Part shown: positions 5,112 through 38,105 of the stretch, in pieces | Layout: each line of letters starts with the position of its first letter | Position numbering within the stretch: the first letter of the stretch is position 1 | Assembly (NCBI GenBank): GCA_035544015.1 | Contig: DATKIP010000076.1 | Span: forward strand, 64,299-128,298 | Reading direction: 5' to 3' | Origin: Candidatus Saccharimonadia bacterium | GTDB taxonomy: Bacteria; Patescibacteriota; Saccharimonadia; UBA4664 | DNA: 64,000 nt | Position numbers and translations under genes: made by a program | Notes under the pieces: generated by a model | Databases searched by the model: none | Told to the model about the DNA's origin: nothing | What the model saw: the letters and a program-made list of their open reading frames with translations, nothing else

Positions 5112-5453
5112 GTGTCATATACCATTATCATGTATGAAACACCAAGCGGCCAGCCGTTGGTACAAAACTTCATAGACGGCGTCCAAAAGGGAACTCGGGC
5201 GAAGGTCTATCGTCAGATTGATCTGCTGGAGTTGTACGGCCCGCAGCTCGGGATGCCCCACTCGAAGCCAATGGGCGGTGGTCTGTACGAGCTGAGAGTA
5301 CGTGGTCAGCAAGAAGTCCGCGTGTTTTACATATTTGCTGTCGAGAATACGGTATATCTGCTTCATGGTTTCCAGAAGAAGAGCCAGTCCACCCCCAAGA
5401 AAGAATTAGACTTAGCTCGACGGCGCCAGGGAGAGATTGAAGCTCAGAACTAG
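5112..5453 (+). CDS. Type II toxin, RelE/ParE superfamily (HigB/Gp49-like)
   Basis: The 'LYELRVRGQQEVRVFYIFAVENTVYLLHGFQKKSQ' region matches the Gp49/HigB-like toxin pattern. It is immediately followed by an XRE-HTH protein. An extended -10 (TGcTATAAT) lies upstream at ~5076. Confidence 0.6.
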   Translation: MSYTIIMYETPSGQPLVQNFIDGVQKGTRAKVYRQIDLLELYGPQLGMPHSKPMGGGLYELRVRGQQEVRVFYIFAVENTVYLLHGFQKKSQSTPKKELDLARRRQGEIEAQN

Positions 5454-5525
5454 TATAGGATTGCACATTTAACACATATATGCAATAATACCGTTAATAG
5501 TCTAAAAGCATGAAGGCGCTGCATT

Positions 5526-5801
5526 ATGAAAGATTGGAAGTCCTACAAAGAGGAATCCCTCAAAAACGACCCAGAGCTCGCGCATCTTTATGATGAGCTT
5601 GAGCCGGAGTACCAACTTGCCCGAAGTTTCATCGAGGCTCGTATCGCCAAGGGTTTGACGCAAATCGAACTCGCGCAAAAGGCAGGTGTTGGCCAAACGG
5701 TCATCGCACGCCTTGAGAGCGGCACATCTAACCCAACAGTAGCAACCGTTAGCAAAGTTGCTAGGGTGCTGGGCCAAGAGTACAGACTAGTTAAGGCGTA
5801 A
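5526..5801 (+). CDS. XRE-family HTH antitoxin (HigA-like)
   Basis: Contains 'GLTQIELAQKAGVGQTVIARLESG', a classical XRE helix-turn-helix. The 91-aa gene lies directly downstream of the RelE-like toxin. Confidence 0.6.
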   Translation: MKDWKSYKEESLKNDPELAHLYDELEPEYQLARSFIEARIAKGLTQIELAQKAGVGQTVIARLESGTSNPTVATVSKVARVLGQEYRLVKA

Positions 5802-6207
5802 GGTCTACCTTCAAAAATTCAGCCGGAGCCATAATATTGATACCCTCGTAGCTTTTAAGTACGAGGAGATCTTTATCACCGCTCACGATGCAGCTACAAC
5901 CGCCAATGACCGCCGTTTCCAGCACCCGGTTGTCGTCTTCGTCCCGAGACACATGAACACTAACGCCTCCCAGCCTCACGAGCTCCGTTTCTTGCTCGAT
6001 AAGTAGCTCCATGAGAGCAAAATCGGGATCAAAATCCGAAAATTTCTGTGTGATTTTGCGCCGCATCTCGGTCAAAATTTCGGAGGAAATAACTACCTCG
6101 ATCATCCCGCGAGCCAGCAACTCAACCACTTGTCGCGGCTTTCCCCCGAATACGAGCGCAGACAGCCAGACATTAGTATCTATGACGACCCTTGGCCTAG
6201 CGTTCAT
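5791..6207 (-). CDS. PIN-domain toxin (VapC-like)
   Basis: Carries the 'VVIDTNVWLSAL' N-terminal PIN acidic motif and the 'IVSGDKDLL' C-terminal motif. The ATG at 6207 overlaps the upstream antitoxin by 11 nt. Confidence 0.6.
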   Translation of the reverse strand: MNARPRVVIDTNVWLSALVFGGKPRQVVELLARGMIEVVISSEILTEMRRKITQKFSDFDPDFALMELLIEQETELVRLGGVSVHVSRDEDDNRVLETAVIGGCSCIVSGDKDLLVLKSYEGINIMAPAEFLKVDLTP

Positions 6208-6436
6208 TGGGGCTGTCGAGAATTTGATACGCTTGCTCCTCGCTCGAAATACCCATCTGGCGACCCTTCGCATTAGCCGCATCCAGCAGGCTCCCCCAAC
6301 GTCGCCGGCGACTCAAATCAGCCAAGGCCAGCCGGCGAAAGTATTCACTTCTACTCCCCAAATCCTGCTTGACCGCTTCGTCTACATCTTTTAACAATGT
6401 TTCGTCCAGCGCAATATTGAGTGTTTTTGTGGCCAT
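6197..6436 (-). CDS. Ribbon-helix-helix antitoxin (CopG/VapB-like)
   Basis: The 'MATKTLNIALDETLLKDVDEAVKQ...SRSEYFRRLA' sequence is a typical RHH DNA-binding fold. The gene lies upstream of and overlaps the PIN gene. Confidence 0.55.
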   Translation of the reverse strand: MATKTLNIALDETLLKDVDEAVKQDLGSRSEYFRRLALADLSRRRRWGSLLDAANAKGRQMGISSEEQAYQILDSPNER

Positions 6437-6478
6437 ACGTAACGAGCTCCTATATGGACAGATTGTATAGGTTTTGTT

Positions 6479-9186: not shown

Positions 9187-10176
9187 ATGGGATCCGGAGA
9201 AGCTACGGCTTCAAGTGTCTTCAATAACCTCATGCTGGGGTACATAATCCTGCTTTTTAACAAGCTCGATCTGTTTCCGCATTTTTTTTCCGGCGCCACC
9301 TTCGATCAGCTGCAGGCAGCCGACGGCCTCGACCCCGTGCGCCTCAGGTCCGTCTTGGGCGCCGCCACCTCCAGCGGCTTGATCCGCGAAAAATATAGTG
9401 TTTACCACCTCACCAACCTCGGGCTCGAGCTGCACCGCAACCGCGGCTTTTTTACCTGGGCCATTGGCGGCTACTCGCCACTGCTCGAGTCTATGGATAC
9501 CTTTTTGCGGTCGCCGGACACCGCCTGGCAACCCTACGTTCGCGGCAATTACGTCGCGGTGGGCGCCGATGAGTGCAACCAGGGCCTCATGCAGGCGATC
9601 TTCGATCAAGTCATCGATACCATACCCGCCACGCGCATCGCCGACCTAGGCTGCGGCAACGCCGGACGGCTCGCCGACCTCCTGAGCCGCCGCCCCGAAC
9701 TCACCGGCGTCGGCGTCGACATCGACCCGGGCGCCATCGAGCTCGCCCGTCAAAACAGCGTCGCTCATGGTTTGGAGCAACGACTCCAATTGGTCCAGGA
9801 AAACGTCTTCGCCTCGCTCACCGGCCCGCGGCCCGAATTTGACGACGTCGAACTCGTAATGAGCTTCATGATGCTTCACGACCTCTTCAATCTCTCGGGC
9901 TTGCAGGGCCGGCTCTTCGACCTCATGAAAAAAGCTTTTCCAAAAGCAAAATACTACGTCCTGGCCGATACCTGCCTCCGTGAGCCACCGCCCGCCGCCA
10001 CAGCTCCGCCCATCTTCACCCTCGGTTTCGAGCTCATCCACGGCCTGCGCGGCATCCAACTATTTCCCCTCAGCTACTACGAGGAGCAATTTTCGCGGGC
10101 CGGGCTGCACCTCGTCGCGCGGCACGATTTTGGCGTGCCGGGTACCCACCTCTTCGTGCTTGAGGTGCCGGCGTGA
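9187..10176 (+). CDS. SAM-dependent O-methyltransferase-like protein (N-terminal dimerisation/wHTH-like domain + class I MTase)
   Basis: Carries the MTase motif I 'ADLGCGNAGRL' and post-I 'GVDID', with an N-terminal helical domain as in plant/bacterial OMTs. Confidence 0.55.
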   Translation: MGSGEATASSVFNNLMLGYIILLFNKLDLFPHFFSGATFDQLQAADGLDPVRLRSVLGAATSSGLIREKYSVYHLTNLGLELHRNRGFFTWAIGGYSPLLESMDTFLRSPDTAWQPYVRGNYVAVGADECNQGLMQAIFDQVIDTIPATRIADLGCGNAGRLADLLSRRPELTGVGVDIDPGAIELARQNSVAHGLEQRLQLVQENVFASLTGPRPEFDDVELVMSFMMLHDLFNLSGLQGRLFDLMKKAFPKAKYYVLADTCLREPPPAATAPPIFTLGFELIHGLRGIQLFPLSYYEEQFSRAGLHLVARHDFGVPGTHLFVLEVPA

Positions 10177-12893: not shown

Positions 12894-13622
12894 ATGTCCC
12901 TCGTTGTGGTGCGGCGCGCCGACAGCCCCGCCGATATTCGCTGTGCCTTCGCGATCCGGGCAGCGGCTTTCAGCCAGCTGGGCGGCAACCGGCACACCCC
13001 GTTTGACACCCGCCCAGACACCCGGTCCTTCCTCGCCACCACCCCCCGCGGTGACGGTGTCGCCGCCGGGTGGGTCGTCTCGGGCCGGTCGGGCAGCTTG
13101 CCTTCCGCTGGAATCTTCGCCCAGATGGGCTGGCCGCTCAATCCCCCGGGTTTCGCGCACTGGGACGAATTCACACGGTTTGGCACCAGCCCTCAGTACC
13201 AGCGAACCCGAACCGGCCTCGCCGGCTTCCTGGGCATGGCCGGTGCCGCCGTCTGCCATGGGCTCAAACCAGAAGCGCCCCGGCTGCACTGGCTCATGAC
13301 CATGATGCCAGGTCTCGTCCAGTCACTGGACTGGGTTCCCTATGAGGGCCTGCATCGGGGACCATTCCAGTACCGCGGCGGACCCAACACGCTCGAGCCC
13401 ATCTGGGCCGCCACCGTGTATCTCCCCGAAGTGCCTCGGGCGCTACAACTCGTGCGCCCCAGACTCTACACCCTGATGTTCCCAGGCGGCGTCCCATCCG
13501 GCGAGTGGCCTGCAGGTCGCTCAGACGATGACCTCCGCGAGCTCATCGCGGCCAATCGCGCCATCCTGGCGACGCACATCAGCCAGGCAGGGGAGCGCTC
13601 GCTGCCGGTCTACACCGCCTAG
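12894..13622 (+). CDS. GNAT-fold acyltransferase-like protein (autoinducer-synthase/N-acyl amino acid synthase-like?)
   Basis: Contains 'VVVRRADSPADIRCAFAIRAAAFSQ' and matches the overall GNAT/LuxI-FeeM-like pattern. The assignment is weak. Confidence 0.3.
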   Translation: MSLVVVRRADSPADIRCAFAIRAAAFSQLGGNRHTPFDTRPDTRSFLATTPRGDGVAAGWVVSGRSGSLPSAGIFAQMGWPLNPPGFAHWDEFTRFGTSPQYQRTRTGLAGFLGMAGAAVCHGLKPEAPRLHWLMTMMPGLVQSLDWVPYEGLHRGPFQYRGGPNTLEPIWAATVYLPEVPRALQLVRPRLYTLMFPGGVPSGEWPAGRSDDDLRELIAANRAILATHISQAGERSLPVYTA

Positions 13623-13701
13623 CGGTCGAGGCCCGCCGGACACTTCGTCCGGCGGGCCTCTTCCCAATTTCCCGCGGCACGATATAGTAGGCATAGACAT
13701 C

Positions 13702-15870
13702 ATGCTTGTACTCTCGGTGATTCTCCTCAGCATCGTCCTAGCAGCAGATATTGCGCTGGGTTTGGTTGTGTGGCTGCAGGCTCCAGGACGCAGCGTTAAT
13801 CGTATTTTTGCTCTGCTAGCCTTCGCCTTCGCCGGATGGAGCGGCAGCGGTTTTTACGATCAAACCGTTGCCAATACGGCCAATCTCTCGCCATTCATGG
13901 CGGGCACTCCTTTTGTTGCCGCTATTTTGATCGCCGGCTTCATCATGCTTTTCACGCTCTATTTTCCCGCCAACCACCTCAACGCTCCGCGCCTGCGCCA
14001 TGGACTCATTTGGGCCCTAATTTTTACCGCCGCGCCGCTAATATTCATGGCTCTGTTCACCAGGCTCATCATAGCCGGCGTCACCATGTCTGCTGCTGTC
14101 GGCAACAACATTATTGTGGGACCGCTGTATGGATTGTTTCCGCTCTTCCTCCTTGCCTGGATCGGGCTGGCTTTGGTCAATTTGGCGCATAAATACCGCC
14201 ACGCCAAAAGCTCTCTCAGCCGGCAGCAACTCAGTTATGTATTCGCTGGATTCTTGCTCACCACCGCCACCGCCTTCATGACCAACGTCATTATTCCGAT
14301 GGCTACCCAAACCCCCACGGTAGCCCGTTTCGGCTTCCTCTCTACGCTGTTCCTCATCGGCTTCATCGGCTATGCCATCGTGGCCCACCGGCTATTCAAT
14401 ATTCGGCTGCTCATTGCCCGCTCGGTGGCCTACTTGCTGCTGCTTGGCACCCTTACCACGCTCTATGGCCTAGGGATTTTCGCCACCAGCCGCTATTTCT
14501 TCCCCGATACCGGCATCAGCATGGGCGAAATCGCCGCCTTCATCGCCATGGCTCTCATTTTGGCTGTCACGTACCAGTCGTTTCGGCGCTTTTTTGAGCA
14601 CGTTACCGACCGGGTTTTCTTTCGTGATCATTACAACGCGCAGACGCTGCTCGACACCATCGCGAGCACGTTGGCCTCGGAATTGCTCCTGGAGCCGCTC
14701 CTGAGAAAAAGTCTCAAAGAGCTTTGCAGCCCGATGCATCTGGCGGGGGCCCAGGTGATGGTGCTCGAGCGCGACCGACTCTACAAACAAGCCCGCTACG
14801 GCCTAGCGGCGCCCAATGCCGTGCCACCGGCTGAGGCTGTTCGGAGCCTTCAGCACCCCATCCTCATAGCCGACGAATTATCGCCAGGCGCACTCAAAGA
14901 TCTGCTTGATGTCCACGGCGTGCGGGTTTCGCTCATGCTGCGCACCCACGGAGAAGCGGTAGGATTCCTGTTTTTGGGCGACAAACGCTCGGGCGACGCC
15001 TACACCGACGAAGACCTGGCCGTGCTCGAGATTGTTCGCAAGGAGCTGGCCGTGGCCATCACCAACGCGCGCGCCTACGAAGAAATCGCTCACTTCAACA
15101 CCACACTGCAAGAGCGTATTCGCCAGGCCACCCGGCGGCTCAGCGCCGCCAATCGCAACCTCAAGGTGCTCGACCAGGCCAAAGACGACTTCATCTCAAT
15201 GGCCTCGCACCAGCTCGGCACGCCGCTGGCCACCATCACGGGCTACCTGTCGATGGCCGTCGATGAAGACAAGCACAACATGACCGCTAATCAGCGCCAA
15301 TACATTAGCCTAGCACTCGAAGCCTCCAGTCGAATGGTGGCGATGTCGAGCGATCTACTCAATGTGTCGCGCCTCAATTCCGGCCGCTTCGCCATTTTGC
15401 CGCGGCCCGTCGACCTCGGTCAGCTGGTGGAGCAAGAGATCGAGCAGCTCAGCCCAGCGGCCGAACGCAAGGGCCTCAGGCTCACCCACAAGCTGCCGCA
15501 GCCGCCCTTGCCGCGACTGATGCTCGACGAGAGCAAAACCCGCCAAGTGGTAATGAATTTCATCGACAATGCCATCTACTACACGCCGCACGGCGGCATT
15601 CACGTAGAGCTCAAGCATGAAGCCGGCGCCGTCATATTTACCGTCACCGACACCGGCATCGGCGTGCCGGCGGCGGAGCAAGCCAAGCTGTTTGCCAAAT
15701 TCTATCGTGCGGACAACGCTCGGCAGACTCGTCCCGATGGCACGGGATTAGGCCTCTACTTAGCCAAAAAAGTCATTGAAGGTCAGAACGGAACCATCAT
15801 TTTTGCTTCCCAAGAGGGCGCCGGGAGCACTTTTGGCTTCAGTTTGCCGTATACGCCCGCCAAGGGCTAA
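13702..15870 (+). CDS. Sensor histidine kinase with N-terminal 7TM domain (HisKA_7TM-like), GAF-like linker, HisKA and HATPase_c
   Basis: Seven N-terminal TM helices; H-box 'SMASHQLGTPL'; N-box 'NFIDNAIYYT'; G-boxes 'DTGIGV' and 'GTGLGL'. It is a paralog of the 34488 kinase. Confidence 0.8.
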   Translation: MLVLSVILLSIVLAADIALGLVVWLQAPGRSVNRIFALLAFAFAGWSGSGFYDQTVANTANLSPFMAGTPFVAAILIAGFIMLFTLYFPANHLNAPRLRHGLIWALIFTAAPLIFMALFTRLIIAGVTMSAAVGNNIIVGPLYGLFPLFLLAWIGLALVNLAHKYRHAKSSLSRQQLSYVFAGFLLTTATAFMTNVIIPMATQTPTVARFGFLSTLFLIGFIGYAIVAHRLFNIRLLIARSVAYLLLLGTLTTLYGLGIFATSRYFFPDTGISMGEIAAFIAMALILAVTYQSFRRFFEHVTDRVFFRDHYNAQTLLDTIASTLASELLLEPLLRKSLKELCSPMHLAGAQVMVLERDRLYKQARYGLAAPNAVPPAEAVRSLQHPILIADELSPGALKDLLDVHGVRVSLMLRTHGEAVGFLFLGDKRSGDAYTDEDLAVLEIVRKELAVAITNARAYEEIAHFNTTLQERIRQATRRLSAANRNLKVLDQAKDDFISMASHQLGTPLATITGYLSMAVDEDKHNMTANQRQYISLALEASSRMVAMSSDLLNVSRLNSGRFAILPRPVDLGQLVEQEIEQLSPAAERKGLRLTHKLPQPPLPRLMLDESKTRQVVMNFIDNAIYYTPHGGIHVELKHEAGAVIFTVTDTGIGVPAAEQAKLFAKFYRADNARQTRPDGTGLGLYLAKKVIEGQNGTIIFASQEGAGSTFGFSLPYTPAKG

Positions 15871-16004
15871 ACCATAGCTATTTTCACAAGAACCATTCAA
15901 TCCCCGGGCATTTTATATACCAACTTCACCAACGCTATCCGGCTGCCAGATAAGCTTTAATTACAAAGGTAAAGGGACGGCCCAAGAGCGGCCAATTAAT
16001 AGGT

Positions 16005-16406
16005 ATGCCTACGCCCACCATTCTCATTGTCGAAGATAATGCCGATCTCCAAAAAATCTATCAAACCGTGCTCACGGGTGACGGATACAACGTAGTAGTG
16101 GCCGGCGACGGCGAGGCCGCCTTGCAGCAGGTCGCCGAGTACCATCCAGATCTCATTTTGCTCGACATGCTCATGGTCAATCTCGGCGGACTGGAATTCC
16201 TGCGCGCGTATCGCAAGACCGCCGATGCTGACGCCAAAATTATCATCGTTAGCAACCTCGCTTCCCCCGAGCTCAGTCAAGAGGCCATCAAGCTGGGCGT
16301 CGACCGATATCTGGCCAAAACCCAACTCACCCCGCGAGAATTAGCGCGCGAAGTCAAAACCATCCTAGCGGCTCCCGAGACGCCCATCGCTTCTGCGCAT
16401 CAATAA
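16005..16406 (+). CDS. Stand-alone receiver-domain response regulator (CheY-like, no output domain)
   Basis: Contains 'ILIVEDNADL', 'DLILLDMLM' and 'K' after beta5. The 133-aa protein has a C-terminal 'DRYLAKTQLTPRELAREVK' tail. Confidence 0.75.
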   Translation: MPTPTILIVEDNADLQKIYQTVLTGDGYNVVVAGDGEAALQQVAEYHPDLILLDMLMVNLGGLEFLRAYRKTADADAKIIIVSNLASPELSQEAIKLGVDRYLAKTQLTPRELAREVKTILAAPETPIASAHQ

Positions 16407-22054: not shown

Positions 22055-23425
22055 TTGCTGCCACCAGAACTCCGCCAATACTCCAACCGAAAATTGTTTG
22101 TCGCCTTAGCCGCCATGATCGCGGCTACCTTCGTAACCACCGCGGCCACGATTTTCACGATCTCCACCCTGGTGGTCTACCGGCAGGGTGCACAGGCGCA
22201 CAACGACGCGCGCATCCAGATCGGCCAACTCCTTACCAGTCTCGCCGATGCCGAAACCGGCCAGCGCGGCTATCTGCTCACCGGCGATACCACCTATCTC
22301 GGACCCTATAGTATGGCCGCCAACCATATACCGGGACAACTCGCAGACATCATCACTCGCACCAAAGGCGACATTGCTCAAGTCCAAATAAATAAATTAA
22401 GCACTCTGGTAAAGCAAAAGCTAACTGAACTCGCAGGTACCATTACGCTGAGGCAATCCGGCGACACCGCTGCCGCCCAGCAAGTCGTGGCGTCCGGCAC
22501 GAGCAAGGTCTTGACGGACCAGATCCGCAGCGTCGCGCAAGAGGTACAAAGTGCCGAGGCCGCCCAGATCGACCGCGACCGCTCCAACATTACCACGTTG
22601 GCTGCTTTAGCCCGCGACATCAGCGTGGTGAGCGTGATAATCGTCATCGGCCTGTCGATCGTGGTGTACTGGACCTACCTCAAGGCCATCCAGAGCGAGC
22701 GGGTACTCGACCGCGCCAAAGACGAGTTTGTCTCGCTGGCTTCACATCAATTGCGCACGCCCGCCACCGGCATCAAATCCATTCTCTCCACCCTGGCCGC
22801 CGGCGATTTTGGCCCGCTCAACGACCGGCAACAGTATTTCTTGCGCCGTGCCCTCGAAAGCAGCGAGCGCGAGCTCGGCATCATCGAAGAGCTGCTCAAT
22901 GTTGCCAAAGCCGATGCTGGCCGTCTCATCTTGCACATCTCCACCTTCGAGCTAGGCGGCCTCATTGACACCATTGTAGGCGAACAGCGCGCTGCCATTA
23001 CCGAAAAACAGCAGGAACTGACCGTTAAACGCCCGTCGCGCCCCATCACCCTCGTGGCCGATGAAGAAAAGCTCTATATGGCCATTGGCAACCTGCTCGA
23101 CAACGCTCGCAAGTACACGCCTGAATTCGGAAAAATTGCTATAACCATATCAAATTCCCATGGCATAGCCAAAATAGAGGTAGCCGACAGCGGCATTGGC
23201 ATCGACTCAGAGGAAATTAACCACATCTTCGACCGATTCCACCGCGCCAGCGAGGCCGTACGCGACCAAGTCGAAGGCGCCGGCCTGGGCCTCTATCTGG
23301 CCAGCCGCATCGCTCAATTGCACGAAGGCAGCATCGAAGTTAGCTCAAGGCTCGGAAAAGGCACAAAATTTGTTATGATACTCCCACAGGGAGATCAAGA
23401 TGCTGCCGAAGGTGCTGCTAATTGA
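22055..23425 (+). CDS. Sensor histidine kinase with CHASE3 extracellular domain
   Basis: CHASE3-like 'ETGQRGYLLTGDTTYLGPY'; H-box 'SLASHQLRTPA'; 'DSGIGI' and 'GAGLGL' G-boxes. Confidence 0.7.
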   Translation: MLPPELRQYSNRKLFVALAAMIAATFVTTAATIFTISTLVVYRQGAQAHNDARIQIGQLLTSLADAETGQRGYLLTGDTTYLGPYSMAANHIPGQLADIITRTKGDIAQVQINKLSTLVKQKLTELAGTITLRQSGDTAAAQQVVASGTSKVLTDQIRSVAQEVQSAEAAQIDRDRSNITTLAALARDISVVSVIIVIGLSIVVYWTYLKAIQSERVLDRAKDEFVSLASHQLRTPATGIKSILSTLAAGDFGPLNDRQQYFLRRALESSERELGIIEELLNVAKADAGRLILHISTFELGGLIDTIVGEQRAAITEKQQELTVKRPSRPITLVADEEKLYMAIGNLLDNARKYTPEFGKIAITISNSHGIAKIEVADSGIGIDSEEINHIFDRFHRASEAVRDQVEGAGLGLYLASRIAQLHEGSIEVSSRLGKGTKFVMILPQGDQDAAEGAAN

Positions 23426-23771
23426 AGACGACGACGTCATCCGGGAAATTTATGCCATGAAGTTCGAGCTCGACGGCTTCCCGGTGGCTTCAGCCTCAAA
23501 TGGGCGGATCGGGCTGCAAATGGTCGAAGATTTTGAACCGCAAGTTATCTTGCTCGACATGATGATGCCGGTGATGGGTGGGCTGGAGTTTATGCAGGCA
23601 CTCAAAAAGCAAGGCCGAGCGCTGCCGGACGTGATCGTGTTCTCCAATATCTCTGCCCCCAAGCAGGTCGACGCCGTGATGCGGCTGGGCGCCAAGGCCT
23701 ACTGGACCAAATCCGACTACACCCCCGACCGCGTCTCCAACGAACTCGTAAAACTATGGAACGATAAGTGA
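23400..23771 (+). CDS. Stand-alone receiver-domain response regulator
   Basis: Contains 'VLLIEDDDVIREIY' and 'ILLDMMMP'. The 123-aa protein has a C-terminal 'AKAYWTKSDYTPDRVSNELVK' tail and overlaps the kinase stop. Confidence 0.7.
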   Translation: MLPKVLLIEDDDVIREIYAMKFELDGFPVASASNGRIGLQMVEDFEPQVILLDMMMPVMGGLEFMQALKKQGRALPDVIVFSNISAPKQVDAVMRLGAKAYWTKSDYTPDRVSNELVKLWNDK

Positions 23772-28430: not shown

Positions 28431-30194
28431 ATGCGATTGCATCACCCCCGTCGCCCCGGCCGCCGGCCTGGGCCCGTCGCAACGGCCCTTGCGGCCACCG
28501 CGGCTCTCGTCGCGGCCACCGCCCTCGCGCTCGCCGCCGCTCCGGCCACTTCCGCCGGTGCGGCCGCCGCGCAGCCGGCGCTGGCATTCGTGGCTTACCC
28601 TCCGAGCAGCGACCATTCGGCCGCACCCCAGGCGTTTCTGCTGCCCTCGGGTAGCACCACGCCGGTGCAACTCACGAGCGACCCCAGTCAACGGGTCGAG
28701 GGCGTCAGCCTCGCCCGCGACGGCTCATTCGCGGTAGTCGATCTTGTCAGCCCCACGAGCAACCCCCTGGGCGACCTCTATCGCGTCGACGTCGCCACCA
28801 AGAGCCTCACGCGGCTTACCGACCGCCTCGGGCTCGAATCCAACCCCGAGATCGGCCCAGACCAGCGAACCGTCACGTTCCACGAGTCCCAGACCACCAC
28901 GCCGCCTGGTCCCGGCATCGACACGCTCGACCTCGTCACGAGATCCGTGACCCGCGTCAGTCCGCCGGACCTCGACGCCATCAGCGTCCCCGAGGGCGGC
29001 GCCAGTTGGTCCCACGACGGAACCCAGCTGGCCTACGCGGTCAATCTGCGCGCCGGACCCAATGCCGGCGGCTACGCGGCCATCGCGCTGAACCTGGCAA
29101 CCGGCATCTACACCCAGCATGCCGTCAGTACCAGAGCCCTGCAATCCTGCGCCTGGACGCCCGACGATGGGTACCTGTTCTGTGGCGGGATCGCGCCTGG
29201 GCTGCTCGTGATCAATACGCGCACCGAGGCGTTCGTTTCGCTCTCGCTCGACCAGTCGCTGACATACGCCGATCTTCGGTTCGCCAACGACTGGACGCTC
29301 TACGGCACCGTTTCTTCGCCGGGCGGCGAACCGCACATCCGCACCATGCAGGTCACGAACGCTGGAGCCGGGCAGATCACCCTGGGCTCGCCCGGCGGCG
29401 ACTTCTCGCCGAGTCTGGGTGACTCCGGCCCAGTGCAGCCGGCCCCCGCCGGCTTCGACGGGTCCACGCCGCCTACGAGCACACCACCCACAACAAAGCC
29501 TCCGGGCTACCGGTGCGGCACGGTGAAGTTCTTCGGCCTCCGGGGATCCGGGGAGAAGAATTTCGAAGGCGAGGGCATGGGCGCCACGGTCGACGACGTC
29601 AAGGTGCGCATGGCCCGGGCGATCCCCGGTCTGCGCTTCGAGGCGATCGGCTATCCGGCCGTTGCGATCGATCTGAACAACGTAGTTCTCACTACGGCCT
29701 ACGTAGAAAGCGAGTTCGACGGGAGGGAAGCGCTCCTAAAGGTGGTGCGCGATTTCATCGCGTTCTGCCCCACAACCTACGCCGTAATCGCCGGTTACAG
29801 TCAGGGGGCGCAGGCGGCTGGTGACGCATACGAGCTGCTATCCAATTCCGAGCGCAAGCACATCGCCGGCCTCATTCTGCTCGGCGATCCCGACTTCGAT
29901 CCGCGCGACTGGAGGATCGATCGCGGCGACTACAGCGACCGGCTGTCGGGCATCCTGGTGAAATTCGACCAGAATGCTCCGCGCACTATCCCTCGACGCT
30001 GGACGCCGAACGTTGAGAGCTATTGTACGGCCGGCGACCCGGTGTGCAACTACAGCAAGCGCAATGTCAGCATCTGCACGCCAATCACGGCTCGCCTGAC
30101 GTGTCCACACTTCCAGTACGTGAGGAGGAGTTGGACCGCCGATGCCGCTCGATGGGCAAGTAGCAATTGGAGGCACCTACCACCCCTGAGGTAA
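28431..30194 (+). CDS. Secreted fusion protein: N-terminal TolB-like beta-propeller repeats + C-terminal cutinase-like serine esterase
   Basis: Tat/Sec-like signal 'RRPGRRPG...ATSAGA'. The C-terminus carries the cutinase pentapeptide 'GYSQGA' and conserved Cys pairs. Confidence 0.55.
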   Translation: MRLHHPRRPGRRPGPVATALAATAALVAATALALAAAPATSAGAAAAQPALAFVAYPPSSDHSAAPQAFLLPSGSTTPVQLTSDPSQRVEGVSLARDGSFAVVDLVSPTSNPLGDLYRVDVATKSLTRLTDRLGLESNPEIGPDQRTVTFHESQTTTPPGPGIDTLDLVTRSVTRVSPPDLDAISVPEGGASWSHDGTQLAYAVNLRAGPNAGGYAAIALNLATGIYTQHAVSTRALQSCAWTPDDGYLFCGGIAPGLLVINTRTEAFVSLSLDQSLTYADLRFANDWTLYGTVSSPGGEPHIRTMQVTNAGAGQITLGSPGGDFSPSLGDSGPVQPAPAGFDGSTPPTSTPPTTKPPGYRCGTVKFFGLRGSGEKNFEGEGMGATVDDVKVRMARAIPGLRFEAIGYPAVAIDLNNVVLTTAYVESEFDGREALLKVVRDFIAFCPTTYAVIAGYSQGAQAAGDAYELLSNSERKHIAGLILLGDPDFDPRDWRIDRGDYSDRLSGILVKFDQNAPRTIPRRWTPNVESYCTAGDPVCNYSKRNVSICTPITARLTCPHFQYVRRSWTADAARWASSNWRHLPPLR

Positions 30195-30732: not shown

Positions 30733-31146
30733 CTAAGCCCCAGCCGGCCCCGCTGCACTCACCCCGCCCTTGGCCAGCAGCGTCTTCACGCGCTCGGCGA
30801 CCTGCTTGGGGGTCATTTCGGCCTTCACGATGTAGTCGTCGGCCGCCATTTTGTATACTCGCGTGGCCGTCTCGGTGTCGCCCATGTTGGTAAGCACCAC
30901 CACTTTGGCGTTGCGGCCGTTGGGTTGGCTGCGCAGCTTGGAGAGCATGTCGAGGCCGTTCATGTTTGGCATCATCAGGTCCAGCAGCACGATATCAGGC
31001 TCAAATGAATCGATCAGCTCCAGCCCGCTCGCGCCGTCCGGCGCCGTGGCTACATCGTAGCCTTCAGTCTCAAATTTGGTCCGATACATCTGCACAATCG
31101 CCATGTCATCTTCGATGATGGCGACTTTGACTTTTGTAGTACTCAT
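30733..31146 (-). CDS. Orphan stand-alone receiver-domain response regulator
   Basis: Contains 'VAIIEDDMAIVQMY' and 'IVLLDLMMP'. The C-terminal 'DDYIVKAEMTPKQVAERVK' tail is shared with the three other REC proteins. Confidence 0.7.
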   Translation of the reverse strand: MSTTKVKVAIIEDDMAIVQMYRTKFETEGYDVATAPDGASGLELIDSFEPDIVLLDLMMPNMNGLDMLSKLRSQPNGRNAKVVVLTNMGDTETATRVYKMAADDYIVKAEMTPKQVAERVKTLLAKGGVSAAGPAGA

Positions 31147-31198: not shown

Positions 31199-31591
31199 CT
31201 AGGAAGCCAAAAGCAATTCCGCGAAGTCCTTGGCAGGCTCGTGGACGCAGGTGCAGGCCAAAATCTGATCGCGCGTCAGCCACTGCGCATCATAGCGCTC
31301 CTCTAGCTCGTATTTCGACAGCGCGTCCTCGTCGGCCTCCAAAATCAGCGCCGTCACGCCGGCACCGGTCTCATCGTAGTCGGCCACGTAGCGCGCTTCG
31401 AGCCCTGTATCGCGTAGCACGTACTGAGCGATCACCTCATGCGGCACGTCGTCGTCACTCAGCGGTCCGTTGCTAGGCTGCCATAGCCCCGGCTTCTCGC
31501 GGTAGCACAACAACAGTTTGGTGCGATCCTCATTTACTACGTAACCGGTCACGAGTTTGGTTTGCTTCCTTCGTTGTCCAAATATTCTCAC
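31199..31591 (-). CDS. Hypothetical protein
   Basis: A 130-aa ORF with no clear motif. Confidence 0.3.
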   Translation of the reverse strand: MRIFGQRRKQTKLVTGYVVNEDRTKLLLCYREKPGLWQPSNGPLSDDDVPHEVIAQYVLRDTGLEARYVADYDETGAGVTALILEADEDALSKYELEERYDAQWLTRDQILACTCVHEPAKDFAELLLAS

Positions 31592-33713: not shown

Positions 33714-34451
33714 ATGTCAAGATCAAGAGCAACAATTCCAGTCAGTGAGATTCCCATGCCCGGTCATCTCGGCCAGCAGACCGAGGTCATCTATTTTGAG
33801 CATGACGGGATGCGGTTCACCGAGCTCACGTCGCCGCAGCAATTGCATGCGGCCTACGAGCTTCGCTACAGAATCTGCGTCGAGAAGCTGCATTGGGTGG
33901 AAGGGGACCCGGCTACCCGCACCGAATCGGACGAATTCGATGCTCATTCGTATCATTTCGGCTGCTATTCGGGCCAGGAGCTCGTAGGATACCTGCGCCT
34001 TACCAAGGAAACCGCCCCACCCGGCACGATGACGCGCACTTATTTTCCCGAGTTGTGGCATCGTGATCCTCACTATCCCAAAGCCCGTACCGCCGACATC
34101 ACGCGATTACTTCTCGACCGACCGCGTTTGCCAAACCCCAAGTCGATGCTTCCGGCGCTCCGGGGCCTGTATCGCCTGGCGTACGGTAGATCACAGTTGT
34201 GCCGCCCCACCATCCAATATTGGTACTTCATCACCACGCCCAAGCTGCTCGGCGGACTGCGCTGGCGCCTCGGTTTGCCGGTAAAAAAAATCGGCCAAGG
34301 TATAACCTCCGACGGAAAAATGACCTACGTCGCGGGCCTAAGCCTCCGGCGGGGCGGGCTGCAGCTACTGCTACTAGCCCCGTGGCGGCTCAACTACTTT
34401 CGCTCGGTAGCCCGGCATACCCACCCTCTGCCTGGGCCGAGCCGGCACTGA
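33714..34451 (+). CDS. GNAT-fold N-acyltransferase, autoinducer-synthase-like (LuxI/FeeM N-acyl amino acid synthase-like)
   Basis: The 'YELRYRICVEKLHWVEGD...DEFDAHSYHFGCYSGQELVGYLRLT' pattern resembles the exosortase-associated/FeeM-type acyl synthases. Confidence 0.45.
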   Translation: MSRSRATIPVSEIPMPGHLGQQTEVIYFEHDGMRFTELTSPQQLHAAYELRYRICVEKLHWVEGDPATRTESDEFDAHSYHFGCYSGQELVGYLRLTKETAPPGTMTRTYFPELWHRDPHYPKARTADITRLLLDRPRLPNPKSMLPALRGLYRLAYGRSQLCRPTIQYWYFITTPKLLGGLRWRLGLPVKKIGQGITSDGKMTYVAGLSLRRGGLQLLLLAPWRLNYFRSVARHTHPLPGPSRH

Positions 34452-34487: not shown

Positions 34488-36650
34488 ATGATCGATCTGC
34501 CGAGCCTCCTGTTGTTTGTCGCCTCAATCATCAATATCCTGATTGGGCTGAGTATTTTTTTCCGCAATCCCCGGAGCAAATTATTTATTTACTACCTGGG
34601 TCTGGCCGTGGCGCTGGCTATCTGGACATCTACCAACGGTCTGTTTCGGATACTGCCGGCCGAGTCGCTCCTCCCCATCGCGCTCATGAGCTATTTTGGC
34701 GCCATCCTGGTCGGCATGTTTTTTGCGCTCTTCAATGCCGAATTCACCGGCATTCGGCTGCTGCCAAACTGGGCAGTGCTAGCCGCCGGATGCCTCGTGG
34801 CGGTGGGCTCTCTCATACCCGGCGTGTACGCCACGGGCGTAACCGCCAGCCGGTCAATCGTGACCACCGACGGTATCCTCGTGTTTGCCGCCGTCCTGGC
34901 CGTATTGCTCCTGGGTGGGTTGACCGAACTCCTCCGCTATATCTGGCGCGCCCGCGGGCTGGCCCGCCGCCAGGCGCAAATCATGGCCCTGGGCATGGGT
35001 ATCGCCATGGCGATGGGGCTCACCTTCAATTTGGTGCTCCCCCTTTTCCACATCTACGGCTACGTCTACCTGGGGCCCGAATTTACCATGGTGTATCTGG
35101 GAGCGCTCGGTTACGCCATTATTCGCACCCGCCTGTTTGATCTGCGGCTGGTGTTTGCTCGGTCGGCTACGTACTTTTTATTGCTCCTAAGTCTCGGTGC
35201 AGTGTACAGCACGCTCGTTTTCGGCGCGTCAAAAATTGTATTTGTAGATTCCGCTTCCAGCGCCAACGCGAGCTGGCTCTACACGCTGTTTGCCCTTTTG
35301 ACATCCTTTAGCTTTCAGCCGCTCCGCCGCTTTTTCGAAAGAGCCACCAATAATGTGTTTTATCGATACCATTACGACTCCCAAGAGGTCATCAACGACT
35401 TCTCCAAGATCCTAGTGTCGGAGCTCGATCTCGACCGCATCCTCAAGCGTTCGCTCACCGAGCTGTGCGAGAGCCTGCACATTCAATTTGGCCAGCTCAT
35501 TATCTACAACGACGAGCGCGTCTACCGCGTGGAACACTACGGCCAGCTGCCCCGGCGCCTCATGGTGGCGCCGGAGCTGGCGCGGCTAGACAAACCCATG
35601 CTGGTGGCCGACGAGCTGTCCGGCGGCGAGCGCAAGCAGCTCATGGAAAATCACGGCATTCGCCTGTCGATGACGCTGCGCACCCGCGAGCAATTTGTGG
35701 GCCACCTGCTGCTGGGCGACAAGCTGTCCGGCGACATCTATTCCACGCAAGACATCGACCTGCTCGAAATCGTGGGCAAAGAGCTGGCCGTAGCCATTCT
35801 CAACGCCAAGGCCTACGCCCAAATCCAAGAATTCAACCTCACGCTCCAGGCCCGTGTGGAGCACGCCACCAACCGGCTGCGTGTAGCCAACCGCCACCTC
35901 AAGGAGCTCGACCGCGCCAAAGACGAATTCATTTCCATGGCCTCGCACCAGCTGCGCACCCCGCTCACCACCATCAAGGGCTACCTCTCGATGATGCAAG
36001 AAGGCGACGCCGGCAAACTCACCAAGGCCCAGCAAGAATTCGTCGGCTACGCGTTTAGCTCGTCGGAGCGCATGGTCAATCTGATCTCCGACCTCCTCAA
36101 CGTGTCGCGGCTGTCGGCCGGGCGGTTCCTCATTCAAACCAAGCCTACGGACATGGTGCAAATGATCCGCGATGAGGTGCGGCAATTGAACAATCACGCC
36201 ACCACCAAAGGCATCAAGCTTATCTTCGAACCTCCGCCCGAGCCACTGCCCCCGGCCGAGATCGACGACAACAAAACCCGCCAGGTGGTCATGAATTTCA
36301 TCGATAACGCCATCTATTACACCAGCCAGGGCGAGGTCCGCGTGATGCTCGAGCAATCCGGCGACCGGGTGCGGCTGGAGGTGCGCGACACCGGCATCGG
36401 CGTGCCCGAGGCTGCCAAGAAAAAACTGTTCAGCAAATTCTTCCGCGCCGACAACGCCCAAATCGTTCGTCCCGACGGCACTGGCCTGGGTTTGTATTTG
36501 GCAAAACGCGTAGTCGAAGATCAGGGTGGTACAATAATATTCAATAGCGTCGAGGGCAGAGGCTCGACCTTCGGATTCGAGCTCCCCTTTAAACCCGTAA
36601 CACCCATTCGAGAGGTTGCCCACCATGGCCGACACCACCACCCCAAATAA
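34488..36650 (+). CDS. Sensor histidine kinase with N-terminal 7TM domain (paralog of 13702..15870)
   Basis: Same architecture as the first kinase: 7TM, GAF-like linker, 'SMASHQLRTPL', 'NFIDNAIYYT', 'DTGIGV', 'GTGLGL'. Confidence 0.8.
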   Translation: MIDLPSLLLFVASIINILIGLSIFFRNPRSKLFIYYLGLAVALAIWTSTNGLFRILPAESLLPIALMSYFGAILVGMFFALFNAEFTGIRLLPNWAVLAAGCLVAVGSLIPGVYATGVTASRSIVTTDGILVFAAVLAVLLLGGLTELLRYIWRARGLARRQAQIMALGMGIAMAMGLTFNLVLPLFHIYGYVYLGPEFTMVYLGALGYAIIRTRLFDLRLVFARSATYFLLLLSLGAVYSTLVFGASKIVFVDSASSANASWLYTLFALLTSFSFQPLRRFFERATNNVFYRYHYDSQEVINDFSKILVSELDLDRILKRSLTELCESLHIQFGQLIIYNDERVYRVEHYGQLPRRLMVAPELARLDKPMLVADELSGGERKQLMENHGIRLSMTLRTREQFVGHLLLGDKLSGDIYSTQDIDLLEIVGKELAVAILNAKAYAQIQEFNLTLQARVEHATNRLRVANRHLKELDRAKDEFISMASHQLRTPLTTIKGYLSMMQEGDAGKLTKAQQEFVGYAFSSSERMVNLISDLLNVSRLSAGRFLIQTKPTDMVQMIRDEVRQLNNHATTKGIKLIFEPPPEPLPPAEIDDNKTRQVVMNFIDNAIYYTSQGEVRVMLEQSGDRVRLEVRDTGIGVPEAAKKKLFSKFFRADNAQIVRPDGTGLGLYLAKRVVEDQGGTIIFNSVEGRGSTFGFELPFKPVTPIREVAHHGRHHHPK

Positions 36651-37050
36651 TGCCGCCGATCAAAAAACTATCCTCATCGCCGAGGACGATCCGTTTATTT
36701 CGCGCATGTACCAGATCAAACTCGAGGGCGCCGGCTACCGCGTAGTCGTCAAAAACAACGGCCGCGACGCCTTCGAGGCCGTCAAAACCGAGCATCCCAA
36801 CCTGGCTGTGCTCGACATTAACATGCCAGAGCTCTCGGGCCTCGAAGTGCTCTCGGCGCTCCAAAATGACAACTTCGATTTTGCCGCCATGCCCGTGATT
36901 GTGCTTACCAACTCGTCCGAGATCACCGACCGCAACACGGCCCACGCCTACGGCGCCGAATATCTGGTGAAGGCCGAGCTCACGCCGCGCGAAGTGCTCG
37001 ACATCATTGGCGCCAAGCTCGGCACCGCTCCGGCCAAAGCCGCCGACTAG
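36616..37050 (+). CDS. Stand-alone receiver-domain response regulator
   Basis: Contains 'ILIAEDDPFISRMY' and 'LAVLDINMP'. Its C-terminal 'AEYLVKAELTPREVLDIIGAK' tail matches the others. It overlaps the kinase 3' end. Confidence 0.7.
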   Translation: MPTMADTTTPNNAADQKTILIAEDDPFISRMYQIKLEGAGYRVVVKNNGRDAFEAVKTEHPNLAVLDINMPELSGLEVLSALQNDNFDFAAMPVIVLTNSSEITDRNTAHAYGAEYLVKAELTPREVLDIIGAKLGTAPAKAAD

Positions 37051-37067: not shown

Positions 37068-38105
37068 CTAAGGCAGCACGAGCGCGTCACGCTCGCGGCG
37101 CAGCGTAAAATTGGAGCCCGGCGGCTGCATTAAGCCGGCTTGGGTCGTGACCGCCGTGAGGTACCCGGCCGCCCGCGCTATCTGGATGCTCGTGTCGTTA
37201 TAGGTGCCGTAGGGATAGGCGAAATGCTTCACCGCGTGGCCGAGCTGGGCCTCGAGCTGCTGCTTGCCATCCGCGATCTCGAGCTGCTGCTCGGCCGCCG
37301 GTAACGCTGCCAGGTTGCGGTGGTTGACGGTGTGGCCGCCGATGGTGATGAGGCCGCCCCGGTCGAGCTCGCGAATCTGATCCCACGTCAAATACGCGTC
37401 GCCACAGCCACCCCGCGGCTGGAGCGCGTCGCCGTAGCGCCGGCCGGCACCAATGCACCACTTGCTCTGCGCTCCGCCGGTGATGATGTAGAACGTTGCC
37501 TTCATGTGGTGGCGTTTCAGGGTATCAACCGCCGCGGTTTGGGCCGCAAAGCCGTCGTCGAAGGTAATCACCACCGGCTTGGGCGGCAGGGCTTCGCCGC
37601 GTAGCCCGGCCAACGCCTGGTCCAGGTCGATCACGGTGTAGCCGTACTGTTCCAGGTGCTCCAGCTGCTGCTCAAAATTGGCCGGGGGATAGTGATACAA
37701 CAAAATCGGCAACCCCACACCGGCCGCCGGCATCGCTCCGCCGGCCGTCGCCGTCCCACTGCCCTTGCCGCTGAGCTCAAAATTCCAGTTGGCCAGCGAT
37801 TGCTGCAGGCCGCGAATATCCGTCGCGGCCATCGCGAAGTGCCCGCTCTCGGCGTCGAGCTGGATCACCGACAGCTGACGGCTAAGCTCGTCTTCGGATA
37901 CCACCTGGGAATGAAGGTCGCGCTGCAGCCCCTCGAATTGGTGTACCGACTGTACCACCCGGCCATAAGCCATGCGCAGATCGGCCGGGTAGCTGGTGCT
38001 GCTAGCCAGGCTCACCGAGGCGTGCGGCCAGGTGGCCACCACTACCACCGCGCTGGCGAGCAATGCTCCTGCCACCCCTGCAAACCGTAACCAACGCAAT
38101 ATCAT
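37068..38105 (-). CDS. Polysaccharide deacetylase (NodB-homology domain) with N-terminal signal/TM anchor
   Basis: Contains 'VVITFDDGFAAQ' and 'GGHTVNHRNL' NodB motifs. Confidence 0.65.
   Translation of the reverse strand: MILRWLRFAGVAGALLASAVVVVATWPHASVSLASSTSYPADLRMAYGRVVQSVHQFEGLQRDLHSQVVSEDELSRQLSVIQLDAESGHFAMAATDIRGLQQSLANWNFELSGKGSGTATAGGAMPAAGVGLPILLYHYPPANFEQQLEHLEQYGYTVIDLDQALAGLRGEALPPKPVVITFDDGFAAQTAAVDTLKRHHMKATFYIITGGAQSKWCIGAGRRYGDALQPRGGCGDAYLTWDQIRELDRGGLITIGGHTVNHRNLAALPAAEQQLEIADGKQQLEAQLGHAVKHFAYPYGTYNDTSIQIARAAGYLTAVTTQAGLMQPPGSNFTLRRERDALVLP

Follow-up and report, generated by a model that had tools for sequence, protein, structure and literature searches.

In several bacterial signaling systems, the gene for a signal synthase lies beside the gene for a polytopic kinase that binds the synthase's product in its membrane domain. 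LuxM/LuxN, AinS/AinR, CqsA/CqsS, LqsA/LqsS/LqsR, agrBDCA, and comQXPA are organized in this way. Within this group, LqsR is a receiver that lacks a DNA-binding output domain, and in the agr and comQXP pherotype loci, the signal genes and the N-terminal sensor region of the kinase together form one unbroken variable block flanked by conserved sequence. A different gene pairing, that of an N-acyltransferase with a PlsC-like O-acyltransferase, defines the synthesis of ornithine, glycine, and related aminolipids. The 64,000-nucleotide stretch of DNA analyzed here, termed the window, is part of a 320-kb contig in a metagenome-assembled genome (MAG) of Candidatus Saccharimonadia. It holds two copies of a module in which the gene for a predicted LuxI/FeeM-like acyltransferase is followed by genes for a membrane-embedded histidine kinase and a stand-alone receiver. 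Saccharimonadia are episymbionts; like other bacteria of the Candidate Phyla Radiation (CPR), they carry very small genomes and grow attached to bacterial hosts.

On balance, each copy of the module probably forms a self-contained signal/sensor unit in which the product of the synthase is read by the adjacent kinase. The evidence comes from orthologous loci, in which the sensor domain of the kinase changes together with the gene cassette upstream of it. Complete quorum-sensing systems have already been proposed in silico for CPR bacteria in a CPR/DPANN catalogue (PMC7567580); it lists 36 homologues identified with a LuxI hidden Markov model for the CPR, and 18 of them, including two from Saccharibacteria, adjoin a putative sensory kinase (Bernard et al. 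2020, PMC7567580). The general idea of a LuxI homologue beside a sensor kinase in CPR bacteria, Saccharibacteria included, is thus already published in silico. Duplication within one genome, the copy-1 protein family, the cassette partners, and co-variation were not found in the consulted passages and supplementary tables of the catalogue, which was also the only item found in the literature on pherotype-like or kinase-linked LuxI systems in Patescibacteria. Neither the age of the duplication nor the recognition of the orphan protein as a member of another LuxI/FeeM-like family was found in that literature.

Two copies of a synthase–kinase–receiver module

The six open reading frames (ORFs) of the two modules lie at the coordinates below, which are in accord with a separate set of gene calls for the source contig.

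12894–13622 (+): ORPH1, the copy-1 synthase-like gene, predicted to encode a highly divergent LuxI/FeeM-like GNAT-fold acyltransferase (family of 16 representatives, AlphaFold2 model, family-to-family hhalign)
13702–15870 (+): kinase 1 (HK1), a polytopic membrane sensor with a GAF-like region, HisKA, and HATPase_c
16005–16406 (+): receiver-only response regulator 1 (REC1), 133 aa, PF00072 (E = 1.3e-22), without an output domain
33714–34451 (+): GNAT2, the copy-2 gene, predicted to encode a LuxI-like GNAT N-acyltransferase (PF13444, AlphaFold2 model, family profile)
34488–35327 (+): membrane sensor of kinase 2 (HK2), residues ~1–280, the hypervariable part, with HisKA_7TM at residues 8–219
35328–36650 (+): conserved cytoplasmic part of HK2 (GAF-like, HisKA, HATPase_c), 72–89% identical among 11 orthologues
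36616–37050 (+): receiver-only response regulator 2 (REC2), PF00072 (E = 1.3e-20), 68–84% identical across orthologous loci

The two kinases align from end to end (42% identity, E = 3e-172). As the initial annotation of this DNA had recognized, their catalytic motifs are nearly identical, including the H box (SHQLGTP/SHQLRTP), the N box (RQVVMNFIDNAIYYT), and the G boxes (DTGIGVP and GTGLGLYLAK). Both proteins contain HisKA, HATPase_c, and a weak GAF match, and both have 6–8 hydrophobic segments within their first 250–290 residues. HK2 exceeds the Pfam cutoff for HisKA_7TM (PF16927; 38.9 bits against 28.6, residues 8–219), and HK1 has only a weak precomputed match to the same family. HisKA_7TM is a described sensor domain for which no ligand was found in the literature examined. 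The receivers are 39% identical, and each matches PF00072 only, in keeping with their first description as stand-alone proteins downstream of each kinase; the acidic pocket, the phospho-acceptor Asp, and the Lys are present in both. Synthase-like gene and kinase gene lie on the same strand in each copy, separated by 79 nt in copy 1 and 36 nt in copy 2. The start of REC2 overlaps the end of the HK2 gene, as it does in L001 and L002 (loci of the relatives compared here are given L-numbers, and proteins of relatives P-numbers). In a third two-component pair of the window (22055–23768), the gene for a CHASE3 sensor kinase precedes that for a further receiver-only protein, and a C-terminal Y-x-x-K-x-x-x-T-P motif is common to all four receivers in the window.

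The proteins encoded upstream of the kinases had been described as GNAT- or autoinducer synthase-like, a description that is upheld by predicted folds and family alignments. GNAT2 exceeds the cutoff for Acetyltransf_5 (PF13444; 24.8 bits against 22.4), with the match confined to its N-terminal half, and falls below those for FeeM (PF21926; 26.4 bits against 27) and TIGR03694 (44.5 bits against 111.95). It lies far below the cutoff of the OlsB equivalog NF052554 (13.8 bits against 350). The acyl-homoserine lactone (AHL) synthase family PF00765 gave no match at E ≤ 0.01 to the protein of either copy, and precomputed matches to PF00765 are on record for the relatives P0004 and P0005. In a Foldseek search with the AlphaFold model of GNAT2 (pLDDT, the predicted local distance difference test score, 74.5), the best matches were the AHL synthases BjaI, LasI, TofI, MesI, RpaI, and EsaI (E = 2e-9 to 4e-7), and FeeM (2G0B) matched at E = 2e-6. 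The alignment of the copy-2 family profile with TofI and BjaI covers the positions that mark LuxI enzymes (RYR..W..ExDxxD..RL..LSR); the R, W, ExDxxD, and RL positions are kept, and D-x-(S/T)-R stands in for the E-x-S-R of LuxI. GNAT2 looks most like the AHL synthases that depend on coenzyme A or acyl carrier protein. Its start may be at 33756; the deposited protein has 231 aa.

A relative of the copy-2 protein is also encoded on a contig assigned to a fungus. Contig QEAO01000042.1 of Synchytrium microbalum (L090:6001–8543) encodes a protein of 412 aa that shares 49% identity with the LuxI-like protein of copy 2 and has a carbohydrate-binding module of the AMP-activated protein kinase type at its C terminus. 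The gene spans 2.5 kb, which implies introns, and sits amid large genes of eukaryotic size on a 208-kb chytrid contig, which suggests transfer into the fungus rather than contamination.

The copy-1 protein is far more isolated. It has no match in Pfam or NCBIfam and no BLASTP similarity to the copy-2 protein, a word-indexed homology search returned only the protein itself, and hhalign of the copy-2 family against this single sequence gave a probability of 1%. An exhaustive HMMER search of 1.84 billion proteins yielded a family of just 16 representatives. Both members with an organism name come from Saccharimonadia or Saccharibacteria, one member was named AHL synthetase by IMG, and 3 of the 16 match PF21926 weakly. 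The family consensus retains RHxIF, HDxxD, ARLI, and EPSR. An AlphaFold model based on the family alignment is confident (pLDDT 87.6); its best match in the PDB is FeeM (2G0B_A; E = 8.6e-7, TM 0.75, root-mean-square deviation 3.3), followed by the AHL synthases BjaI, TofI, and LasI at about 1e-5.

At the family level, the two synthase-like proteins can be connected. Family-to-family hhalign aligns copy 1 with copy 2 in register (E = 3e-4), and a chain of pairwise phmmer matches leads from one to the other (4e-20, 1.6e-9, 1.7e-11, and 8.6e-5) through proteins that are themselves encoded upstream of orthologous kinases. By this chain, the fold, and the family alignment, all three genes of the module were therefore duplicated, as first proposed, and the synthase genes of the two copies have diverged beyond pairwise recognition. 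Both proteins are LuxI/FeeM-like GNAT-fold acyltransferases as judged by sequence and predicted fold. A spurious ORF in GC-rich DNA was considered for copy 1 and ruled out by the GC content at its three codon positions (0.68/0.56/0.79, like that of neighboring genes), by the existence of the family, and by the confident fold. In two other genomes, HK1-type and HK2-type loci likewise lie 20–24 kb apart on single contigs, and the duplication is therefore old.

Gene order is also conserved around each copy. The initial annotation had held that its proposal would fail if the GNAT-like proteins were unrelated enzymes whose synteny with the kinases was not conserved elsewhere; in other Saccharimonadia, it is. 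The copy-2 order, namely receiver (−), methyltransferase (in some loci), PlsC-type gene (−), GNAT, kinase, receiver, and polysaccharide deacetylase (−), recurs in these genomes with GNAT proteins that are 50–57% identical. The copy-1 order recurs in L023, L039, L086, and L087, and the HK1 orthologues of L023, L033, L039, and L086 are preceded by the copy-1-type synthase family. In the complete MAG chromosome CP064960.1 (L039:4794–7727), the genes for the synthase-like protein of copy-1 type and for the kinase of HK1 type are each interrupted across several reading frames, either as possible pseudogenes or possibly through indel errors of long-read sequencing.

Co-variation of the upstream cassette and the kinase sensor

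Relatives of the kinases were surveyed in about 35 CPR loci, in which the slot upstream of the kinase is not always occupied by a GNAT gene. GNAT-like cassettes occur with or without a methyltransferase. In five loci, the slot instead holds a set of genes for a ~510-aa protein, a member of the ThiF family, and a protein resembling nitroreductases; an alpha/beta hydrolase occupies it in two loci, a pyruvoyl histidine decarboxylase in one, and a methyltransferase alone in two. The divergently oriented neighbor shifts with the cassette, being PlsC with GNAT and an aminotransferase-like gene with ThiF. The ThiF sets (L007:3236–5946, L009:1851–5647, L013:2322–5961, L020, and L034) lie upstream of HK2-type kinases and resemble, as far as gene content can suggest, azole-forming peptide-modification genes; their ~510-aa protein has no Pfam match.

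Sensor and transmitter were compared across 11 orthologous copy-2 (HK2-type) loci, the window included. The transmitter (kinase residues 300–700) is 72–89% identical in every pair regardless of cassette, and the same indifference to cassette is seen in REC2 (68–84% identical to the window), the conserved receiver at the left flank (REC3, 75–90%), and the deacetylase at the right flank (49–65%). In contrast, the sensor (the first ~200–280 residues of the kinase) is 48–62% identical only among the three loci with a GNAT2 cassette (the window, L001, and L002) and 17–35% identical in pairs with different cassettes, alignments of membrane regions being close to noise at ~25% identity. When cassette labels were permuted, same-cassette identity of the sensor (0.43 against 0.25 overall) was significant at p = 0.00035, and that of the transmitter was not (0.779 against 0.770, p = 0.21). 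Identity along the HK2 orthologues jumps near residue 280. The variable block of the window (~31147 to ~35330), which includes a 130-aa ORF, a methyltransferase gene, the PlsC-type gene, GNAT2, and the HK2 sensor, is contiguous, ends within the kinase gene, and lies between conserved flanks. Kinases that follow the copy-1 synthase family have 46–54% identical sensors and transmitters that are just 59–67% identical.

The GNAT2-cassette genomes might have been merely the nearest relatives of the window, an explanation that was rejected because L007 and L009 are equal or higher in transmitter, REC2, REC3, and deacetylase identity. L009, which has a ThiF cassette, has the most similar transmitter (83%), REC2 (83%), and deacetylase (65%) and has no BLASTP-detectable sensor similarity to the window, no GNAT2, and no PlsC.

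The cassette genes and flanks of the two loci, beyond the module genes listed above, are the following.

9187–10176 (+): MTa, a methyltransferase dependent on S-adenosylmethionine (Pfam Methyltransf_31/25), found in synteny with copy-1-type synthase genes at L039, L086, and L087
10173–11255 (+): class I/II aminotransferase (PF00155, E = 8.5e-43), position kept in L039 and L086
11284–12006 (+): MTb, methyltransferase (Methyltransf_23/31/12/25), gene call of 240 aa
12105–12887 (+): MTc, methyltransferase (Methyltransf_23), directly upstream of the synthase-like gene
13628–13660 (+): GC-rich hairpin with a perfect 14-bp stem, after the synthase-like gene and before kinase 1, RNA fold −38.9 kcal/mol
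30733–31146 (−): REC3, conserved receiver-only protein at the left flank of the variable segment, 75–90% identical in 11 HK2-type loci with any cassette
31199–31591 (−): 130-aa ORF inside the variable segment
31732–32988 (−): EgtD-like (Methyltransf_33) methyltransferase (PF10017, E = 5e-13; TIGR03438 weak), also in L001
33021–33671 (−): PlsC-type acyltransferase (PF01553, E = 1.6e-16), divergently oriented from the synthase gene
37068–38105 (−): polysaccharide deacetylase (PF01522), conserved right flank, in most HK2-type loci

Joint swapping of cassette and sensor is expected if the kinase detects the product of its neighbor, and the co-variation thus supports, by sequence comparison, a cognate synthase–sensor pair. 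In the proposed mechanism, the LuxI/FeeM-like acyltransferase and its cassette partners (methyltransferases and the aminotransferase in copy 1; the PlsC-type acyltransferase and the EgtD-like methyltransferase in copy 2) would make a small, acylated, lipophilic molecule derived from an amino acid. The kinase encoded directly downstream would recognize this product, or a close derivative, within the membrane through its polytopic N-terminal domain. The kinase would then autophosphorylate on the H-box histidine and pass the phosphate to the co-transcribed single-domain receiver and, in copy 2, perhaps also to the conserved divergent receiver; the receiver would act through protein–protein contact or a further relay. 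Of the original proposal that a self-made acylated signal is sensed by the kinase, the sensing part gains from a sensor that co-varies with the cassette while transmitter and flanks do not. That the signal is acylated we infer, as we do the product itself, its binding to the kinase, and the output.

The same diversity of the upstream slot, which ranges from GNAT and ThiF–nitroreductase sets to alpha/beta hydrolase, pyruvoyl histidine decarboxylase, and methyltransferase-only types, would also be found if kinase and receiver were a conserved regulator and the biosynthetic or antagonism cassette its output. The sensor would then read an external cue, for instance one derived from the host, and would vary because cassette and sensor both adapt to different hosts or niches; the episymbiont lifestyle makes host-specific sensing plausible. 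This arrangement leaves unexplained why sensor type tracks cassette type closely and does not track the flanking genes, which reflect genome relatedness. Moreover, the variable block is one unbroken stretch that stops within the kinase gene, as in known cognate signal–receptor loci. A cassette that serves as output is therefore rather unlikely, as it explains the co-variation less well than a cognate signal–receptor pair.

Within the cognate-pair reading, a more specific and decidedly tentative proposal is that the locus is pherotype-like in Saccharimonadia, with chemically different cassettes moving, each with a matching sensor, onto one conserved transmitter/receiver backbone. The cassettes would include LuxI/FeeM-like genes with methyltransferases or PlsC, peptide-modifying sets of ThiF and nitroreductase, and others. 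The sensor domains of the two copies look unrelated and their synthases are very different, and two orthogonal channels are therefore proposed for this genome.

Several observations weigh against a cognate signal/sensor unit, and some of them against co-variation as evidence for it. Membrane domains evolve fast in general, the lowest sensor identities fall in the near-noise range given above, and the ThiF-cassette loci are only 31–42% identical to one another in their sensors. The genomes compared are MAG species-level representatives rather than strains of one species. In copy 1, a strong hairpin parts the synthase-like gene from the kinase gene (13628–13660; z = −4.05, with 0 of 200 shuffled sequences equally stable on RNA folding); no T tract follows it, and a weak promoter-like site lies at 13661–13688. 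Promoter and terminator scans of both loci, including the scan that gave this site, were at chance level overall.

Two further points of this kind concern the copy-1 protein and would also fit the absence of any functional link, with adjacency resulting from the compactness of CPR genomes and the divergent copy-1 gene being a decayed relic. The copy-1 protein encoded in the window carries W60 and T94 at positions occupied by R and S in at least 90% of its family, including its nearest member, P0007, and it may, from its sequence, be inactive or altered; in addition, one family member (L088/L089) is found near methyltransferases and an enzyme dependent on pyridoxal phosphate (PLP), without a kinase. 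A chance neighborhood is nonetheless very improbable, given gene order kept at 30–55% protein identity in several genomes for both copies, the coding-type codon-position GC content of copy 1, its confident fold prediction, and significant cassette–sensor co-variation.

Cassette partners and the aminolipid alternative

The initial annotation missed that each synthase-like gene belongs to a larger cassette. Copy 1 closes a same-strand run of genes for a methyltransferase, a class I/II aminotransferase, two further methyltransferases, the synthase-like protein, the kinase, and the receiver. In copy 2, the opposite strand upstream encodes the PlsC-type acyltransferase, the EgtD-like methyltransferase, the 130-aa ORF, and the extra receiver-only protein, and the convergent polysaccharide deacetylase gene lies downstream. 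Homologues of MTb are found upstream of HK1-type kinases in L023 and L033, and a methyltransferase gene precedes the copy-1 synthase family in L023, L086, L087, and L088. In L033 (4369–5862), a methyltransferase and a copy-1-type LuxI/FeeM-like domain form a single frame of 498 aa, and L019 (2191–3669) has a methyltransferase/LuxI/FeeM-like fusion in the reverse order. By Rosetta-stone logic, these fusions hint at a single product that is both methylated and acylated. For the 130-aa ORF, one relative alone was found; it is 42% identical and belongs to L001, a locus of the same cassette type.

These larger cassettes leave room for a membrane aminolipid instead of a diffusible signal. An OlsB/GlsB-like GNAT would N-acylate an amino acid, an OlsA/GlsA-like PlsC would add a second acyl chain, and methyltransferases would modify the head group; the product would be a structural lipid, and the 7TM kinase would be a homeostatic sensor that monitors the membrane or envelope rather than cell density. 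The PlsC-type gene lies 42–84 nt from GNAT2 on the other strand, and its translation has intact HX4D (NHQSRVD) and FPEG (FPEGRRT) motifs. This gene adjoins GNAT-type cassettes in seven loci (L001, L002, L008, L010, L011, L017, and L019) and is absent from the ThiF-type loci L007, L009, and L013. GNAT2 exceeds the cutoff of PF13444, the Pfam family that includes OlsB, and the methyltransferase–GNAT fusions of L019 and L033 also speak for this reading. The conserved adjacent polysaccharide deacetylase fits envelope monitoring, and the co-variation also fits a sensor that reads a membrane lipid.

Even so, an aminolipid pathway is rather unlikely. GNAT2 reaches 13.8 bits of the 350 set for the OlsB equivalog, and AHL synthase structures and TIGR03694 match it better. 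Neither the ORF list nor the gene calls give copy 1 a PlsC partner. Cassettes that are unable to make aminolipids, namely those with ThiF/nitroreductase, hydrolase, or decarboxylase genes, occur with this kinase backbone too, an exporter is added in L001, and swapping of a structural lipid pathway between close relatives is unexpected. At the GNAT2-type locus L001 (4993–7828), the genes that separate the PlsC-like gene from the main GNAT encode a MacB-like permease, an ABC ATPase, and another GNAT paralogue, which is divergent. If the product does prove to be a membrane aminolipid, the locus would show CPR cells that scavenge lipids both tailoring and monitoring their membranes.

Other features of the window lie outside the two modules. 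Upstream of the copy-1 cluster are two toxin–antitoxin-like pairs, one of Gp49 with a helix-turn-helix protein and one of PIN with a small ORF (window 5130–6440; L005:2237–3543), and just left of the copy-2 locus is a gene for a 587-aa protein with a C-terminal cutinase domain (28431–30194). GC skew is negative in almost all 1-kb bins from 1 to 64000, regardless of gene strand. Past ~45 kb, GC content falls from about 0.60–0.65 to about 0.46–0.54, and an 856-aa protein with coupling-protein domains of the TraG/TrwB/VirD4 type is encoded in this lower-GC part (53333–55903). It may belong to a conjugative or type IV secretion element.

Relation to known systems

That two synthase–kinase–receiver units are kept in a tiny genome suggests that self-made small molecules matter to this bacterium. 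If cassette and sensor are swapped jointly, the ligand of each kinase becomes a testable prediction, and the orthologous loci provide natural matched and mismatched pairs. As cognate pairs, the modules would extend LuxI-like enzymes to signaling through histidine kinases instead of LuxR-type receptors; should the pherotype-like proposal also hold, an agr/comQXP-style system would exist in CPR bacteria. We know of no agr/comQXP-style system for non-peptide LuxI-like signals that are read by histidine kinases.

Among aminolipid enzymes, OlsB/OlsA and GlsB/GlsA resemble copy 2 in that a GNAT-type N-acyltransferase is encoded beside a PlsC-type acyltransferase. Unlike OlsB/OlsA, the modules of the window combine a GNAT far below the OlsB equivalog cutoff, a copy 1 that lacks PlsC, and a unit that is coupled to a kinase and swappable.

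The enzymes themselves are closest to the LuxI type (BjaI, LasI, TofI, and EsaI) and to FeeM, with which they share a predicted fold; as aligned with TofI and BjaI, the copy-2 family also appears to keep the R, W, ExDxxD, R, and xSR positions. Unlike members of those families, the proteins of the window fall below the cutoffs of PF00765, PF21926, and TIGR03694, and copy 1 departs from its own family at the two near-invariant residues. Unlike LuxI systems, the locus contains no LuxR-type receptor.

In its gene arrangement, each module resembles LuxM/LuxN, AinS/AinR, CqsA/CqsS, and LqsA/LqsS/LqsR, in which a synthase gene likewise lies beside that of a polytopic sensor kinase. By likeness to these systems, the membrane domain would perceive a lipophilic signal made by the cell itself, and the receivers lack a DNA-binding output domain, as LqsR does. 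The synthase differs from LuxM/AinS and from the PLP enzyme CqsA in its predicted LuxI/FeeM GNAT fold. Unlike LuxN and CqsS, the sensor matches HisKA_7TM, with no LuxN or CqsS sensor model among the Pfam and NCBIfam matches; moreover, the kinases are not hybrid kinases.

Unlike agrBDCA and comQXPA, which signal with the peptides AgrD and ComX, the modules would use small acylated molecules, with modified peptides as a possibility at other loci. The output also differs, being receiver-only rather than AgrA or ComA, as does the level of comparison, which here is between species-level genomes rather than strains. Despite these differences, copy 2 has the same architecture, with a hypervariable block made up of signal-making genes and the N-terminal membrane sensor next to a conserved transmitter and response regulator.

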